From NCBI GenBank assembly GCA_051532055.1, contig JAOPTX010000010.1, positions 126,175 through 167,610 of the forward strand: 41,436 bases of DNA, in the 5' to 3' direction. This document shows positions 12,001 to 27,000 of the stretch, piece by piece (position 1 is the stretch's first letter; each line of letters opens with the position of its first letter). The position numbers were made by a program. Source of the DNA: Fibrobacterales bacterium (lineage in GTDB: Bacteria > Fibrobacterota > Fibrobacteria > Fibrobacterales > JAOPTW01).

Positions 12001-15000
12001 TCAAGCGGCTGACTGGTTCTATGAATTTGGTTTTGAAAACGCTGATGTTGATGCACTCCCTAAAAAGAAGTTTGAAGCATATAATAGAGATCGAAACTCA
12101 AAGGTGCTTCTTAAAAGAGTATAATGTAGTGTCACACTGTATTTGACGCCGTGTGATTAAAAGGTATGATTAGATGGATAAAGAAAAAATAAAAGCAGGC
12201 TTTAAAATGATTCTCGAAGGTGTGGGTGAAGATCCAAACCGAGAAGGGTTACTCGATACTCCGCGGAGAGTTGCAGATATGTATGAAGAACTCTTTGCGG
12301 GCCTGCACAAAGACCCGAATGATCTCATGAAGACTTGTTTTGCTGAAGATTTTGATGAGATGATTCTTGTGAAAGATATCGAGTTTCAATCTATGTGTGA
12401 ACACCACTTCCTCCCTTTTAAAGGGGTAGCTCATGTTGCATATATTCCTAAAGACAAAGTGGTAGGGCTCTCTAAAATCGCTCGTGTAGTAGAGCATTTT
12501 GCACGTCAACCACAAATCCAAGAAAGAATGACTCGTGAAATTGCAAACTTCATACAAGAAAAGCTCGATCCACAAGGGGTTGCAGTAGTGTTGGAGAGTG
12601 AGCATATGTGTATGACCATGCGTGGTATTAAGAAGCCGGGTTCTAAAATGCTTACAAGTCAGCTTAAGGGTGTATTCAGAGAGAATCAAGACACACGTGA
12701 AGAGTTTATGTCATTGATAAAATAATCACTATACAGAGGCCTTAAAATAAGAAAAGCCAGCTCAATGAGCTGGCTTTTCTTATAACTATAGGATTACTAA
12801 GTGGTCTTAGTACTCTTCAAGGTTTGAGAATTCTGCGTCCTCAACCCATTGTTGTGGGCGGGCTACAAATTCTACGATATTTTCAAGAAGGTGTGCGTGT
12901 TTTTTCTCTTCTTCTGCAAGTTGGAGAAAAAGCTCTTTGTATTTTGCATTATCCATTTCAGCAGCTTTCTCTTCATAAAAAGTTGCTGCGCCATCTTCGA
13001 TCTCTGCGGCCTTTTTGTACATATCAACTTGTGCCGAATCGATATTAAAAGCTTTAGCATCGCCACCTTTCATTGACTCAAATACATTTTTAGCTTCAGT
13101 AAGTACCGCAGCATTAGCCATGTCGGCTTCAGGATCTTCCGCTTTCATTTGCTCAAGAGTTTTGTAGTGAACCGCTTCTTCATCTGCAAGCAAAGTAAGG
13201 ATGGTAATGAGGCCTTTATTGGTTGTTTTGCTTGCAAGATCTCTGTAATATGCTTCGCCGTCTTTCTCCATCTTCATAGCGTATTCATAAATATTCATAG
13301 TTCACTCCTTGTAGTGGTTACTCTTTAGGGTACCATTTATCTCATCGTGAAAGGCACCAAATTAGATTCTTCTTGTCAAATAAGTTGTAACAAAATCAAA
13401 CCTGTAAAATTCAGGCCTAGAAATGTAACCGTGTTTGACTTTTTTGATCATTCTCAATATAAAAAAAATGCAAAAAAAAAGGTGCACAAAGTGCACCTAA
13501 ATTCGATCAAAATCATTGATTCTAAGCTTAAAACTTCCAACCTAGGTTAACTGAACCACTATAGATTGGGAAGCCTATATCGAGGTTCGGATAGTGTTGG
13601 TATCCGCCACCACCAGTAAGGATGATGTAAGTACCAATTGGGTTAATCATGAGTTTTGCTTGAAGTTCTGCTTGTGCTTTCCATGTGTCAAATTTGTTTT
13701 CGTAGCCAACAGGGCCATCAATGGCAAAGTCGTATGACGCAGGAACACTGAGTTGAAGGAATACTGGTGAAATAATGGCGCCAGCACTGCCTGGCATTCC
13801 AGGTACAACATCTTCGTCGATAAAGCGCGTGAGCACGTGTGCGAATACTTGAGCATATTTGAGGCTTTCGTCAACATCACCAATAGCCCAAGGTTTTGTA
13901 TAGAAGTATGTTCCTTGGATCTGGAAGTCAAATGGGCCAATTCCTTTGAGGTGTGTTCCAAAATAAATATCAGTATTCTGAATGCGTGCCCGAGCTGAGT
14001 CACGAGAGGCGATGTTTTGTGTCTTTAGTGAATCACTATAATACTTAGCAAGGTCATCATTAGCATCAATTATACTGTCACGAGTATCATCGTCAATTGC
14101 ATCGTCTTCGTCTCTTGGGTCGAAATCTTTAATACTGTCAAGGATATCTTGTTCGATTTTTGCTATTTCTATATCTTGTGCCCACCATTTTTCACTATCA
14201 AACATTACTCCACCATACCAGTGCCAGCCGCGAGTATACATTGCCTTTTTCTGGAATGGAAAACGAATAGGGCGATACAGGGCATAGTCAAATTTTACGC
14301 CAAACATAAATCGGTCACGTTCAAGGGTTGTAGATGGAATTACATCTTGAGCTCCAGTTAATTGAGTATAGCCGGCATCAGTTGCCCATACTTTTCTTAC
14401 AGGATATGTTACATCAGAAATATTCTGATTCATATAGAAAAGGTCAATTATCAATTTGTCAGGCCCAATGAATCGAGACAATTTTATTTTAGTATCAATT
14501 TGATTTGAGTAATCAGATTCCTCAGGGTACCACTCTATAAAGCCTTGGCGAGTTTGTTCTCTTAACGCTACTTCCCAGTACACATCAAACAAAGGGTATA
14601 GATTGAAATTTCTGTGGAGTACCACGCCTTTATCAAGAATGTAAAGTGATGTGAAATCATTCCATCCAATTTGCTGATGTACAGGGTTTTTATTTGCAAA
14701 AAGCATTGAACTAACTATCATACCATCATCAATATTAATTTCCCTCATATAAGCATCAACACTGATGAAAGGATGTCTGAGACGTACTCTGGCAAGTTTG
14801 TTATTGAAATCCGACCCACTATCATGTGTAGCAATTCTTTCTAATTGCGTTTGAGTTAGGTAATTACCTTGATATGGAGCATTTTTTACCCATATCGCTT
14901 CACTTGCACGAGATCGCGCATAATCAGGTTTGTCAAATTCACTCAACCCTTTAGTGTAGCGTTGTGTATAAGTGAAAAATAACTCTGGAAGCATATTGTC

Positions 15001-24000: not shown

Positions 24001-27000
24001 AGCCAATGCATATAATGTTTAACTTCTGGATTTTTGGACCACTGACAGGTAATTATCCTGCTGACTATTTGGATGGGGGAATTGAGCCAACTACTGAGTA
24101 TGAGTATTTCCGTTATTATAAATGGAATGGTGAAGATGAGTATGAGCATCCAGCATGGTGTGGTAATAAAACGTGGAATGGTACTCGTTGTGAATAAATA
24201 GCATTACTAATCATTACTTAAATTAACTATAAGGGCCTTAATCTATGGAGGCTCTTTTTTATAGGTGCTTTGGTTGCAATGAGTTTCTGTAAATAGCTAT
24301 TTACAAATCACAGTGTAAATCTCTGTTAGCTACAATTGTAAACTTATCATTTTGTACCAAGTACTTTTAAGCGGGTGTTAGCTCAGTAAGTTATAGTGGG
24401 TGTATCAATATTAAAATTTTTGTTAATCTTTGATACATCTTACATATTGCTGTAAAAACTCGTCTAAAGAATTTGATGAAATTGATATTTTAGATAGTTG
24501 TACTATATATATACTATGCTGGGAACCCATGGGGGCGTTGTCAGAAGTGGTCCACCAATATTCGTTTGTGTTGATACCCTCCCAGGCTAAGCGAGTTATA
24601 AAATATCCCCCTAATTTTACAGAAAATCCAGTGGTATTAGTTTCATGTAGGATGTACTGTTGCCCGCTGGGTCCTGCAAAATCAATTAATTGGGTCCACT
24701 CGTTTTTGCTCGGTAAATGCCAGTTGTTTGGGCAGATACCTTGAATGTTACTTGGGGTGTCATTGGAACCTCTTACACCAGATACGACAGGATGTGTATA
24801 GGGGGTGTACTTTTGGCCGGTGATTGCTGTAGGCCAATAATACATTCGGCCATGTATATTACAGTTGCTTGAGCGGCTTTCATAACAAAAAGAACTAATG
24901 GTGTCGTAGATAGAGTAATTTAAGTTCTCCGCCATCCAAATTTGTTCACCAATTCTCACCCATTTATAAATTTGACTATCTCGTGAGTCGGGAAATTCAC
25001 CATTAATGAGTTCAGTATATTCAGCGGTAACCATAGTATTCGTATAACAACTATACGTAATAGACTGGCCAGTAGCACCAGGGATAGTACAGTCTTTATC
25101 ATCAAATTCCCAGTGAGAAAATTCATACCCAAATGGGGCGTCAGGTGCAGTGATTTGATGAGGGGCTTGGTACTTCACCGAGGCAGTTTCACTAAAAAAG
25201 TTGGACGGTGTAGAGTTAAAGGTTACGGTAAAGAGCTTTCGAGTATATTGGGCGATCACTTGGCCTTCACCTGATTTTTTGAAACCAATAGTAGAGCCCG
25301 AGACATCTGCATTGGATTCTTCTACGAGAGTTGAGAAGGTGAATCCCCAAGCGGCTGTTGTGGTAATGCTCTTTGGGGCGTCATCCTCTTTAATGGTAAC
25401 AGAAGAAGGAATCTCGTCGGATACATCCGCGCAGTTAATATCGATGTTATCAGCTTGACAGGTAATAGATATAGTCGTTTGTGGGATAGTAATTTCGTTA
25501 AATGTTACTGTTGCAGTGAGGACAGGTTTTACAAAGGCGCCGTCCTGTATTCCTGTAATAATGTGCTCACTGAGTTCTAGATCATCGGAGGTGTAATCAG
25601 GGTCACAATATTCATCGATATCCGTTTCAATAATGACGTTGTCGCTATCCATAGTATAAGAGAGTGTTTCATTACTCACTGTTCCACAGGTACCTTTGGC
25701 AGAAACAACAATAGTGTAGGCCTTAGGCGTAAATATTGCGTCTATGACCTCATTCTTTGTACAGCCTATTTTGGTGTTGAGTGCATTGGTTTCATATTTA
25801 AGAGAACACCCTGGTCCACTATCCCACTCTTTAAATTCATAGCCATCAGGGGCAATGGGTTCAATAGAGAGTTTGATTTCTGTTTCTTCATTAATTGAAA
25901 TAGATTCAGTTTCATTGGAGCCCTTGTTGACCGTAATAGTATAGGTGTTTACTTCTTCAGATGAACTTAAATAACTCGACGACGACTTTAAATCAAGCTG
26001 AGGATTGGAGCTTGAAGAGTTAGTGTCTTCAACAAAAGAGCTTTCAGGGGTGACTTCTTCTGATGAATAGGGTTCAGTCGGTTGGTCTTGCGAACTTCTT
26101 CCAGATTCGTCAAGCTCTTCATTTTCAACCTCTTCTTCGCTAGAAAAAAGTTCAGAGGATTGGTGTTGTTGATTGGGCTCTTCAGCGAGTAAGGTGCCTA
26201 AGGTATTTAATCGATTTAATTGGTTTAGGTCTGACCCGAAAATTTCCTCGAGTTCCTCTTGGTTGTCATTATCTTCGAGGAAATCTATGAGGTTCGAAAT
26301 TCGCTCCTTCTTCATTGCTTTTTCGTGTTTTTCTAAAAATGCAATGTTTTCAGTAAAGCTGTGGCTATTGGACTGGGACTTTTTAATTCTATTCTTTGAA
26401 ATTGTTCGAGTTATTGTAGTGGTAGGGAGTCCATAAGACTTACAGATTATTTCGACAGTACTTGGTTTTTCTTCAGAGTTAGGGATGTCGAAGGTTATCT
26501 CAATTGAGGAATCATCACTTTCAAAGTCGTCTTTGGAGGTGAATATGTGACTTGTGGTTTCGTTTATTGAAACTTCTACAGTATGGATTGGTAGGTCGGT
26601 ATCATTCTCGATATCAACTTGGTACTCCTGAAAGTCGGGAGTTGGGCTGTAATCCATGCAGCTTTGAGTAAAAAAGAGAGCATAACAGACAATAAATAGC
26701 GTCATTAATGGACGATTCATAGTGACTTCTCCTGAATAGTTGTGGCATTTAATGTGTGGCCTATCATAAATGAAAAAAAATGAGTTGTAAAAGAGGCCAG
26801 ATGCCATATAAATTATAGGGCAAATAATTTAGAAATCCAGGAAAGAAAATGAGTTGAAATAGTGTTAATATTTGTTCACAAAAGGGCAATACAACAGGTG
26901 TTTCTGTATTGTAAACAGTGTAGCCATATAAAAGTCACATTCTTACCCCTAGTAACATATATAGCGTTTGACTTTTCGCATAAACAAGCTAAATTATCCC

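Follow-up and report, generated by a model that had tools for sequence, protein, structure and literature searches.

Two pairs of genes, each encoding a lipoprotein followed by a protein predicted to form an outer-membrane barrel, were found in a 41,436-nucleotide stretch of DNA (the window) from a marine Fibrobacterales genome, and a third pair is present on contig C37. Such a pair may form the outer-membrane part of a β-glucan utilization locus, acting as a TonB-independent module for glycan capture and import; we put the probability of this reading at a little below one half (about 0.45).

Gene organization and glycoside hydrolases

Barrel 1 (13528–15531, minus strand; ORF of 667 residues) is preceded, 10 nt upstream, by lipoprotein 1 (15542–16600, minus strand; lipobox FIAC), the listed ORF of which begins with a GTG at 16684, whereas the lipobox start MKKLALLLFAVSTAFIAC is at 16600. 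The gene for GH16a (16847–18145, plus strand; PF00722, E 1e-14) is divergent from this pair. In the second pair, the stop of lipoprotein 2 (20202–21203, minus strand; lipobox LSSC) overlaps the start of barrel 2 (18241–20202, minus strand; ORF of 653 residues), a paralogue of barrel 1, by 1 nt; GH16b (21470–22723, plus strand; PF00722, E 6.7e-18), divergent from this pair, and GH16c (22959–24197, plus strand; PF00722, E 2.1e-21) follow. On C37, a GH16 gene (94858–94040, minus strand) accompanies the lipoprotein (95553–96341, plus strand) and barrel (96398–98368, plus strand) genes, such that all three pairs have GH16 genes beside them. The coordinates and order of the window genes in the ORF listing match those given in the genome-wide survey's note. 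No inner-membrane sugar transporter was found among the window ORFs next to the pairs. A 794-residue protein that combines Flg_new repeats with a FISUMP (Fib_succ_major) domain at its C terminus (24423–26807, minus strand; PF09603, E 8e-21; TIGR02145, E 1.2e-32) is of uncertain membership in the locus; a Flg_new_2 protein also occurs in another GH16/GH3/TBDT locus of the same genome (L045).

GH16a, lipoprotein 1, barrel 1 and the GH158-like gene described below are covered, with 100% identity, by contigs from a marine RNA library; this library may contain DNA and was made from the sample that also gave the probable source assembly. One contig (15374–16378) bridges the junction of lipoprotein 1 and barrel 1 and another spans 16886–18101 of GH16a, with barrel 1 and the GH158-like gene being covered in parts.

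The three GH16 enzymes of the window, all of which match PF00722, are lipoproteins with long linkers, rich in Ser, Asp and Glu and ∼100 residues in length in GH16a and rich in Ser in GH16b and GH16c. Each carries a lichenase-type ExDxE motif (EIDLE in GH16a, EIDIE in GH16b and GH16c). The best PDB matches are 1,3-1,4-β-glucanases for both GH16a (3axd, E 7e-7) and GH16c (3axd and 1mve, E 2.5e-13), and GH16b matches the NCBIfam BglS-like family at E 1.8e-21, below the cut-off. The window GH16s therefore look like lichenases from their motif and nearest solved relatives, and β-1,3 specificity is not demonstrable for them, leaving the earlier label of endo-β-1,3-glucanase unsupported. A β-1,3 theme follows instead from a 911-residue GH158-like lipoprotein (27026–29761, plus strand; lipobox FAGC), together with GH81 and GH16 in relatives. 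The C-terminal TIM barrel of this protein (clan GH-A) matches GH158 structures in the PDB (9oro, E 9.7e-10; 6pal, E 2.6e-4), and the protein is 43% identical to one from another Fibrobacterota locus (L035:15255–17948); the TIM enzyme that precedes the pair in L001–L003 is a homologue. Its gene, a conserved member of these loci, lies outside the region that had been delimited in the survey.

Predicted structures of the barrel and lipoprotein

Barrels 1 and 2 are 61% identical over 653 residues, close to the 60% previously claimed for these paralogues, and the C-terminal GWKF is indeed present on all three barrels, including that of C37. The barrels had been described as lacking a Pfam family, which holds at E ≤ 0.01 and extends to NCBIfam; a Pfam scan likewise revealed no Plug or TonB-receptor domain. 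An AlphaFold2 model of barrel 1 (33 sequences; pLDDT 81.5, pTM 0.78) has helices in residues 24–180 and then 16 strands, corresponding to a signal peptide, a predicted Cys-bridged N-terminal helical/TPR-like domain (∼24–180), a 16-strand outer-membrane barrel and the GWKF end. A comparison of this model with 48,161 chains using VIA-align gave PgaA (4y25; Z 20.1, rmsd 3.8, 276 residues aligned), PelB (9h80; Z 18.1, 337 residues aligned over model residues 59–665, involving both TPR and barrel) and BcsC (9b8h with bound cellotetraose, Z 17.9; 6tzk, Z 17.1) as the nearest structures. The gap is modest between these export porins (Z 17–20) and ordinary 16-strand porins, with the sugar-uptake porins CymA and chitoporin both at Z 16.4; the protein translocases TamA, BamA and CdiB reach Z 13.9–14.8. 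The language-model (Atlas) neighbours of barrel 1 are NfrA and BcsC clusters (0.93–0.94). By their predicted fold the barrels are thus members of the TPR-porin class, as the survey had concluded. Conserved Arg, Asp, Gln and Tyr residues occupy the polar face of many barrel strands.

The two window lipoproteins are more divergent, at 25% identity (E 2e-15, in agreement with the earlier figure) compared with 61% for the barrels, and have no match in Pfam or NCBIfam at E ≤ 0.01. The AlphaFold2 model of lipoprotein 2 (pLDDT 73.3, pTM 0.75) is a β-sandwich with the ExoP C-domain (3f95, Z 9.4) as its top VIA-align match, followed by the carbohydrate-binding modules CBM11 (Z 8.7), CBM29 (8.2), CBM4-2 (8.1) and CBM30 (8.0), values of 8–9.4 that are to be read against the best Z of 7–8 typically reached by models with no clear match; the Bacteroides protein BtSGBP-B scores 7.8. 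The best three Foldseek matches were all CBM11 (E 1e-4), two of them (6r31 and 6r3m) complexes with a β-1,3-1,4 tetrasaccharide. A search of the PDB with the family profile returned only CBM4-2 variants (E 0.015–0.5), and the Atlas neighbours of lipoprotein 2 are CBM30, Exop_C and SGBP_B_XBD clusters (0.90–0.92). Across 64 lipoprotein sequences, the lipobox cysteine, two further cysteines, Tyr132, Trp140, Trp145 and Trp151 are at least 90% conserved; lipoprotein 1 belongs to this alignment. Although divergent, as had been noted, the lipoproteins are therefore not merely variable; they constitute a newly recognized conserved family with a predicted CBM4/11/30-like β-sandwich fold.

Pairing, distribution and neighbourhood

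Each of 26 barrel genes from the window and 22 loci in at least two phyla is immediately preceded, on its own strand, by a match to the lipoprotein family (13 of the 64 rows of the lipoprotein profile come from these same loci), which bears out the pairing proposed in the survey. From alignment end to next alignment start, the gap in the 26 pairs is −4 to 213 nt. The barrel family is rare: it was detected in four of 296 Fibrobacterota genomes and in one of 401 sampled Myxococcota genomes, this being the query genome itself, and most β-glucan users manage without the pair. The earlier family size of 32 clusters stands for a word-indexed search, but an exhaustive HMMER search yielded 163 representatives at E ≤ 1e-3 and 101 at E ≤ 1e-10; the 22 genome loci of the survey were not reproduced by a pattern scan, which gave five genome and 12 metagenome loci.

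Loci of the Myxococcota type share a fixed operon in the order GH158-like, lipoprotein, barrel, GH81 and laminarinase-type GH16. The GH158-like enzyme is directly upstream of the lipoprotein in eight loci, GH81 directly downstream of ten of the 12 non-Fibrobacterota barrels with downstream DNA and GH16 after GH81 in five loci; GH26-like and GH43 enzymes also occur around the pairs. Regulators (ROK in L005 and L030, LacI in L028) and importers (MFS_2 in L034 and L035, MFS_1 in L028, an ABC ATPase in L005) are encoded nearby. No polysaccharide synthase adjoins any of the 26 barrels, and the 107 neighbouring ORFs scanned include a single GT2, which lies 6.8 kb off in one locus with genes for a kinase and DNA polymerase I in between, in keeping with the survey's observation that glycoside hydrolases are near and synthases are not. 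Given these hydrolases, regulators and importers and the lack of a nearby synthase, the genes around the pairs are of a catabolic and not a biosynthetic kind, with β-1,3-linked glycans at their centre. In two cases, C37 and the sister genome, a TonB-dependent receptor directly follows the barrel, and here the TBDT rather than the barrel could be the importer; no other outer-membrane transporter stands beside the pair in the other 24 of 26 cases. At the other GH16 loci of this genome, a TonB-dependent receptor is next to GH16 in two of eight.

The gene content parallels that of the Bacteroides 1,3GUL (TBDT, SGBP-A, SGBP-B, GH16_3, GH158 and GH3; PMC7157763), in which the SGBPs are particularly divergent; the lipoproteins here likewise diverge more than the barrels. 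The pair stands in the slot taken by a TBDT in that system and in two other GH16 loci of this genome.

Possible roles of the pair

In the proposed import module, lipid-anchored endo-glucanases (GH16 and GH158-like in the window, with GH81 in addition in relatives) would act at the cell surface, cutting glucan that is β-1,3-linked or of mixed linkage. The CBM-like lipoprotein, presumably surface-exposed, would bind the chain and pass it to the mouth of the barrel, with the adjacent or overlapping genes fixing the ratio of the two proteins. A single glycan chain or oligosaccharide might then slide by facilitated diffusion through the 16-strand barrel, of the PgaA/BcsC/PelB/NfrA structural class, and the periplasmic disulfide-stabilized TPR-like domain may receive it and/or dock periplasmic enzymes. 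Inward direction would be set by a sink consisting of periplasmic hydrolysis and inner-membrane MFS or ABC uptake. If the lipoprotein faced the periplasm, the pair would resemble PelC–PelB or AlgK–AlgE and not an SGBP with its importer. The survey had also read the barrels as uptake porins; its fold class, lipoprotein pairing and catabolic setting are retained, while the β-1,3 label of the GH16s and the 'variable' lipoprotein are not.

The main rival, possible but doubtful, is a Slam-like (type XI-like) translocon, in which the TPR-barrel would conduct no glycan but transfer the CBM lipoprotein, possibly along with the lipoprotein glucanases, from the periplasmic side to the surface, and glycan would enter through another transporter. 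The invariable pairing fits this reading, as does the rapid divergence of the lipoprotein, which would suit surface-exposed cargo. All four window enzymes are lipoproteins needing surface exposure, and the GH81s of L003, L004 and L005 also have lipoboxes. Where a TonB-dependent receptor comes after the pair (C37, sister genome), the gene order of lipoprotein, barrel and receptor recalls a TbpB/TbpA-type locus with a Slam gene next to it. According to the Slam report (PMC5449769), Slam proteins share the architecture of a periplasmic TPR and a barrel (DUF560), 185 of 353 adjoin a lipoprotein gene and one is found beside tbpB; however, their barrel is predicted to have 14 strands, against the 16 modelled here, and an eight-stranded TbpB-type barrel domain is common in their cargo, whereas the partner here is CBM-like with no such domain among its top matches. 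Further, the barrels do not match PF04575/DUF560 (hmmscan against Pfam-A), both the structure comparison and the language model place them near polysaccharide porins, with protein translocases ∼5 Z units lower, and 24 of the 26 loci offer no TBDT beside the pair as a possible importer.

To our knowledge, all characterized members of the TPR-porin class export polysaccharide, including the fold relatives PgaA, PelB and BcsC and the language-model neighbours NfrA and BcsC. The barrel could accordingly export or remodel a β-glucan made by a distant synthase, with the lipoprotein as a periplasmic accessory (compare PelC, PgaB and AlgK) and the glucanases trimming the polymer as do BcsZ, PslG and PgaB. 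Export systems do carry a hydrolase, often with a lipoprotein partner, and processive-type GT2 genes exist elsewhere in the genome (best hit on C92, E 1.4e-21), both counting for this reading. Yet none of the five such hits is on C10 or C37, no synthase accompanies the barrels, the fixed operon holds three endo-β-1,3-glucanase families (GH158-like, GH81 and GH16) and not one trimming enzyme, catabolic-type regulators and sugar importers share the loci, and the CBM-like partner is unlike PelC, PgaB or AlgK; exopolysaccharide export is unlikely.

A catalytic or lectin barrel with the lipoprotein as substrate-binding helper, after GluM, reportedly a myxobacterial outer-membrane β-barrel β-1,6-glucanase, is highly improbable: Myxococcota also carry the barrel family beside glucanases and the conserved polar residues of the strands would suit it, but the family was found in none of 400 other sampled Myxococcota genomes, whereas GluM homologues are said to be widespread in myxobacteria, and neither the Pfam scan nor VIA-align showed a glycoside-hydrolase fold or motif in the barrel.

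Import thus remains our preferred, if tentative, reading of a previously unnamed pair that occurs in the β-glucan loci of two phyla and may represent a new route of polysaccharide uptake.

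Gene layout and pairing

The ORF map of the window (GC content ∼39%) agrees with the gene layout described between 13.5 and 24.2 kb in the genome-wide survey's note. Two pairs, each consisting of a lipoprotein gene and a downstream gene for a protein of ∼660 residues with a TPR domain and an outer-membrane barrel, lie on the minus strand (lipoprotein 1, 15542–16600, with barrel 1, 13528–15531; lipoprotein 2, 20202–21203, with barrel 2, 18241–20202). Three GH16 genes (GH16a, 16847–18145; GH16b, 21470–22723; GH16c, 22959–24197) are transcribed divergently from them on the plus strand. 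The two barrels share 61% sequence identity and the two lipoproteins 25% (E = 2e-15). A third lipoprotein/barrel/GH16 set is located on contig C37 of the same genome, and all three barrels (3/3) end in the C-terminal motif GWKF; eight further GH16 loci in this genome are all without the pair.

The flanks of the window carry housekeeping genes, and a FISUMP-domain protein is also encoded within it. A HydF homologue (33226–34497) and two radical-SAM genes (35980–37074 and 37098–38522, the latter with a BATS domain) form a stretch, 33226–38522, that resembles the [FeFe]-hydrogenase maturases HydF, HydE and HydG, with a fumarase/aspartase-type lyase in between. The genome encodes at least three DUF4423 proteins, with two in the window (3628–4461 and 40383–41216) and one at another retrieved locus (L041:2862–3692).

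Pairing was examined with profiles of both families, run over ORFs from all six frames in the window and in 22 loci, leaving out L029 (a duplicate of L005) and L006–L021 (sub-stretches of included places). A lipoprotein-family match lies directly upstream of, and on the same strand as, every barrel gene (26/26), the two being separated by −4 to 213 nt; some rows of the lipoprotein profile were drawn from the scanned loci themselves and its database rows may equal scanned proteins (P0187 corresponds to the L003 contig), and at least 12 of the 26 matches had not entered the profile from a locus. Additional lone lipoprotein paralogues are present in some loci. The L003 contig carries a second lipoprotein–barrel pair (7304–10799), preceded by a GH16 gene whose product is 31% identical to the lichenase-type enzymes of the window and less like the laminarinase type.

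The barrel was found in four of 296 Fibrobacterota genomes (in none of the 151 genomes of one family) and in a single sampled Myxococcota genome, which is the query genome itself; the nearest homologues carry the label 'Fibrobacterales bacterium' and, like the FISUMP-domain protein, place the window in Fibrobacterales. The 22 genome loci reported by the survey were not recovered in that number; a narrower alignment (A2) returned only five genome loci. GH16a, both genes of pair 1 and the GH158-like gene described below are covered at 100% identity by contigs of one marine-metagenome RNA-library run, and one contig spans the lipoprotein 1/barrel 1 junction, although this library shares its sample with the probable source assembly and may contain carried-over DNA. 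No contig of this library covers 18170–23722 (pair 2, GH16b and GH16c), which is not proof of silence. At position 13470, in the intergenic DNA downstream of barrel 1, a DNA run contains a contig that lacks one base (∼265 of 876 depth), which suggests strain heterogeneity.

Predicted folds of the barrel and the lipoprotein

Barrels 1 and 2 match no family in Pfam-A or NCBIfam at E ≤ 0.01, including BCSC_C and NfrA_C (Pfam) and the PgaA (TIGR03939) and BcsC models (NCBIfam); the Pfam families Plug and TonB_dep_Rec are likewise absent from them, and no SusD family was detected. The 32 clusters to which the survey had confined the barrel family were obtained again with a word-indexed search, but an exhaustive HMMER search gave 163 representatives at E ≤ 1e-3, of which 101 remain at E ≤ 1e-10 and 32 remain at E ≤ 1e-30, so that the family is small yet larger than had been supposed.

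An AlphaFold2 model of the barrel based on 33 sequences (pLDDT 81.5, pTM 0.78) shows helices at residues 24–180 followed by 16 strands. A structure comparison of this model with 48,161 chains using VIA-align gave PgaA (PDB code 4y25; Z = 20.1, r.m.s.d. of 3.8 over 276 aligned residues), PelB of PelBC (9h80; Z = 18.1, 337 aligned, model residues 59–665) and BcsC (9b8h, with cellotetraose, Z = 17.9; 6tzk, Z = 17.1) as the top matches. Sugar porins come next in the ranking (Z = 15.8–16.4 and 12.8), among them the sugar-uptake porins CymA and chitoporin (Z = 16.4) and OprB (Z = 15.8), and the protein translocases TamA, BamA and CdiB have Z values of 14.8–13.9. Foldseek placed PelB and BcsC first (E of about 1e-6), and the language-model neighbours of the barrel are NfrA and BcsC clusters (0.93–0.94). 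A search of PDB sequences with the family profile found designed TPR proteins only (E = 0.0037, positions 82–106), indicating that membership of the TPR-porin class, as proposed in the survey and upheld here, rests on fold and not on sequence.

Two cysteines of the N-terminal domain show conservation of 90% or more, which would fit an extracytoplasmic location. In a crude strand-parity analysis, the polar face is only marginally more conserved than the lipid face (0.53 versus 0.46). In barrel 1, residues 454–514 are predicted to insert a helical hairpin, 60 residues long and strongly acidic, into the fifth extracellular loop; this insertion is found in the Fibrobacterales copies and is gapped in 85% of homologues.

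Nor do the lipoproteins match any family in Pfam-A or NCBIfam (E ≤ 0.01). When the genes upstream of the barrels were aligned across many loci, a common core emerged, PFxVSxYFxPSGxMGDG ... WAGVYW..P.NNWG ... VIYLDDIxWE. A single-sequence search with lipoprotein 2 returned only two clusters, and it took a profile search to reveal the family, with 93 proteins, none of which has a Pfam domain. Named database homologues of the barrel and of the lipoprotein are few and are all called 'hypothetical protein'. Conservation across 64 aligned lipoproteins reaches 90% or more at the lipobox cysteine, at two more cysteines and at several aromatic positions. The conserved aromatics Tyr132, Trp140, Trp145, Trp151 and Phe286 are at most suggestive of glycan binding.

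The model of lipoprotein 2 is a β-sandwich (pLDDT 73.3, pTM 0.75). Its VIA-align matches comprise the C-terminal domain of ExoP (Z = 9.4), CBM11 (Z = 8.7), CBM29 (Z = 8.2), CBM4-2 (Z = 8.1), CBM30 (Z = 8.0) and Bacteroides thetaiotaomicron SGBP-B (Z = 7.8), the best three Foldseek matches are all CBM11 (E = 1e-4), and its Atlas neighbours are CBM30, Exop_C, CBM_4_9 and SGBP_B_XBD clusters. No CBM family model in Pfam matches the lipoproteins by sequence, and their profile retrieves from the PDB only CBM4-2 variants, weakly (E = 0.015–0.5). A jelly-roll, CBM4/11/30-like fold is a reasonable assignment for the model at these modest Z values, and we infer that the lipoprotein may bind glycan.

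Enzymes, regulators and transporters around the pairs

All three GH16 enzymes of the window score above the cutoff of PF00722 and have an intact ExDxE motif (EIDLE, EIDIE and EIDIE), which we take to denote the lichenase/XTH type without the β-bulge; among solved structures, 1,3-1,4-β-glucanases are their closest relatives. The GH158-like gene at 27026–29761 on the plus strand, a member of the conserved locus set, encodes a 911-residue lipoprotein with a lipobox, a candidate clan GH-A TIM-barrel enzyme that is 43% identical to the corresponding protein of a second Fibrobacterota locus. A phmmer comparison relates it to GH158 structures in the PDB (9oro, E = 9.7e-10, over residues 657–808 only; 6pal, E = 2.6e-4), while in Pfam it has only a weak GH2_C match.

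Myxococcota-type loci show a fixed operon, in which a GH158-like TIM enzyme is encoded directly upstream of the lipoprotein (eight loci), GH81 directly 3′ of the barrel (10/12 of the barrels with downstream DNA) and a laminarinase-type GH16 (ExDxxE) after GH81 (five loci). At L001:11725–13981, the GH81 gene that follows the barrel is recovered as several fragments in differing frames, through either a frameshift or errors of assembly. Other loci add GH26-like and GH43 enzymes, ROK/LacI regulators and MFS_2, MFS_1 or ABC importers. The best solved relatives of the GH26-like enzymes (L004:13950–15317, L004:6551–7693, L028:12307–13560, L028:6099–7217 and L035:10993–14022, accompanied by GH43 in some loci) are β-1,3-xylanases (2ddx, E = 6e-24), and their presence with GH43 beside the pair implies that the module may also serve β-1,3-xylan. 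GH16, GH81, GH158-like and GH26-like enzymes are thus co-localized with ROK/LacI regulators and MFS/ABC importers, as in a PUL, and a catabolic setting of the pair is well supported.

A TonB-dependent transporter (TBDT) with Plug and TonB_dep_Rec domains (778/804 residues) is encoded directly 3′ of the third barrel, on C37 (L039:11630–13966) and in the sister genome (L037:6431–8845). On C37 it is co-directional and begins 258 nt after the barrel; no such gene lies behind the other 24 barrels. Among the eight other GH16 loci of the genome, two have a TBDT adjoining GH16. One locus on contig C4 (L045, 65000–80000) contains two GH3 genes, a Flg_new_2 repeat protein, GH16 and a convergent TBDT, and is a conventional β-glucan-type counterpart of the pair-bearing loci.

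Comparison with known systems and possible function

We favour the interpretation that the pair acts as a TonB-independent device for glycan capture and import, to which we assign a probability of roughly 0.45, slightly short of an even chance. It is favoured by the fold class, by the finding that 24 of the 26 loci hold no outer-membrane transporter besides the barrel, and by the parallel with the Bacteroides β(1,3)-glucan locus (1,3GUL), which combines a SusC-like TBDT, the SusD-like SGBP-A, SGBP-B, GH16_3, GH158 and GH3 (PMC7157763). Both share GH16 and GH158-like lipoproteins, a divergent, predicted glycan-binding lipoprotein next to an outer-membrane barrel (the similarity of our lipoprotein model to BtSGBP-B being that at Z = 7.8) and the logic of a catabolic locus. 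The present loci differ in belonging to other phyla, in having no SusD homologue and in having a 16-strand barrel without a plug or a TonB box domain, and hence without evident energy coupling. The TPR element would sit on the periplasmic side of the barrel, in contrast to the surface lid of SusCD. ChiP, CymA, LamB/ScrY and OprB are likewise outer-membrane channels in a catabolic context; these are passive, serve oligosaccharides and, unlike the barrels described here, have neither a periplasmic TPR domain nor an obligatory lipoprotein partner.

Under a more doubtful alternative, the barrel would be a Slam-like translocon and would bring the CBM lipoprotein, and perhaps also the lipoprotein glucanases, to the surface. 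In the report on Slam/type XI secretion, these systems consist of a TPR domain and a DUF560 barrel, predicted to have 14 strands, encoded beside a surface lipoprotein, and are described in Proteobacteria only (PMC5449769). The architecture, the strict pairing with a lipoprotein that is probably active in surface nutrient capture and the TBDT adjacent to the pair on C37 all resemble that description, whereas the lack of a DUF560 (PF04575) match, the 16 modelled strands compared with the 14 predicted there and the apparently different cargo fold set the barrels apart. A PF04575 search of the genome found nothing and was equally silent in 14/14 control genomes. Among the VIA-align and Foldseek matches listed, there is no Slam-titled entry for the barrel and no TbpB-type eight-strand barrel for the lipoprotein.

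The barrels share an N-terminal periplasmic TPR-like domain and a 16-strand barrel with PgaA, BcsC, PelB and NfrA, and some exopolysaccharide TPR-porins also have a lipoprotein partner (PelC, PgaB). They differ in having a far shorter TPR part (∼160 residues), no sequence-family match to these proteins and a predicted CBM-like β-sandwich as partner, and in lying, with no synthase nearby, in glucanase operons alongside importers and regulators of catabolic type. Export of an exopolysaccharide by the barrel is unlikely. No glycosyltransferase was detected among the 32 window ORFs scanned, one GT2 was present among 107 scanned neighbour ORFs, at 6.8 kb from its barrel, and the five processive-GT2 hits of the genome are all on contigs other than those bearing a pair.

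Within the terms searched, the open-access papers and bioRxiv preprints covered contain no report of a TPR-porin in glycan uptake. Another outer-membrane barrel, GluM, is reportedly widespread in myxobacteria, compared with one of 401 sampled Myxococcota genomes for the present family, a difference in distribution that would set the two apart. GluM is described as an outer-membrane β-barrel β-1,6-glucanase from Corallococcus (Li et al., 2019, as reviewed in PMC10800785), and by that description it resembles the present family in being an outer-membrane barrel of Myxococcota with a link to β-glucan breakdown.

A broader and still tentative proposal, at rather less than even odds, is that the pair represents a third architecture for the import of polysaccharides across the outer membrane beside SusCD/TBDT systems and simple specific porins. 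A TPR-porin of the exopolysaccharide-secretin type would operate in reverse, taking glycan from a dedicated CBM lipoprotein at the surface and being drained by hydrolysis in the periplasm instead of by TonB energy. Such a system would be specialized for β-1,3-linked glycans such as laminarin and patchily distributed across Fibrobacterota and Myxococcota.

The passage of large glycans over the outer membrane is poorly understood outside Bacteroidota, and we know of no SusCD systems in Fibrobacterota. In the sea, β-1,3-glucan in the form of laminarin makes up a major pool of carbon. The conserved pair of CBM-like lipoprotein and TPR-porin, encoded among three families of β-1,3-glucanases, represents a concrete, testable candidate for uptake. 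Should the barrel serve in import, the fold of the polysaccharide secretins would work in both directions and polymer uptake could proceed without TonB energy; if it displays the lipoprotein, a Slam-type function would reside on a different barrel and outside Proteobacteria. Either would be new biology, and both unnamed families would gain an annotation.
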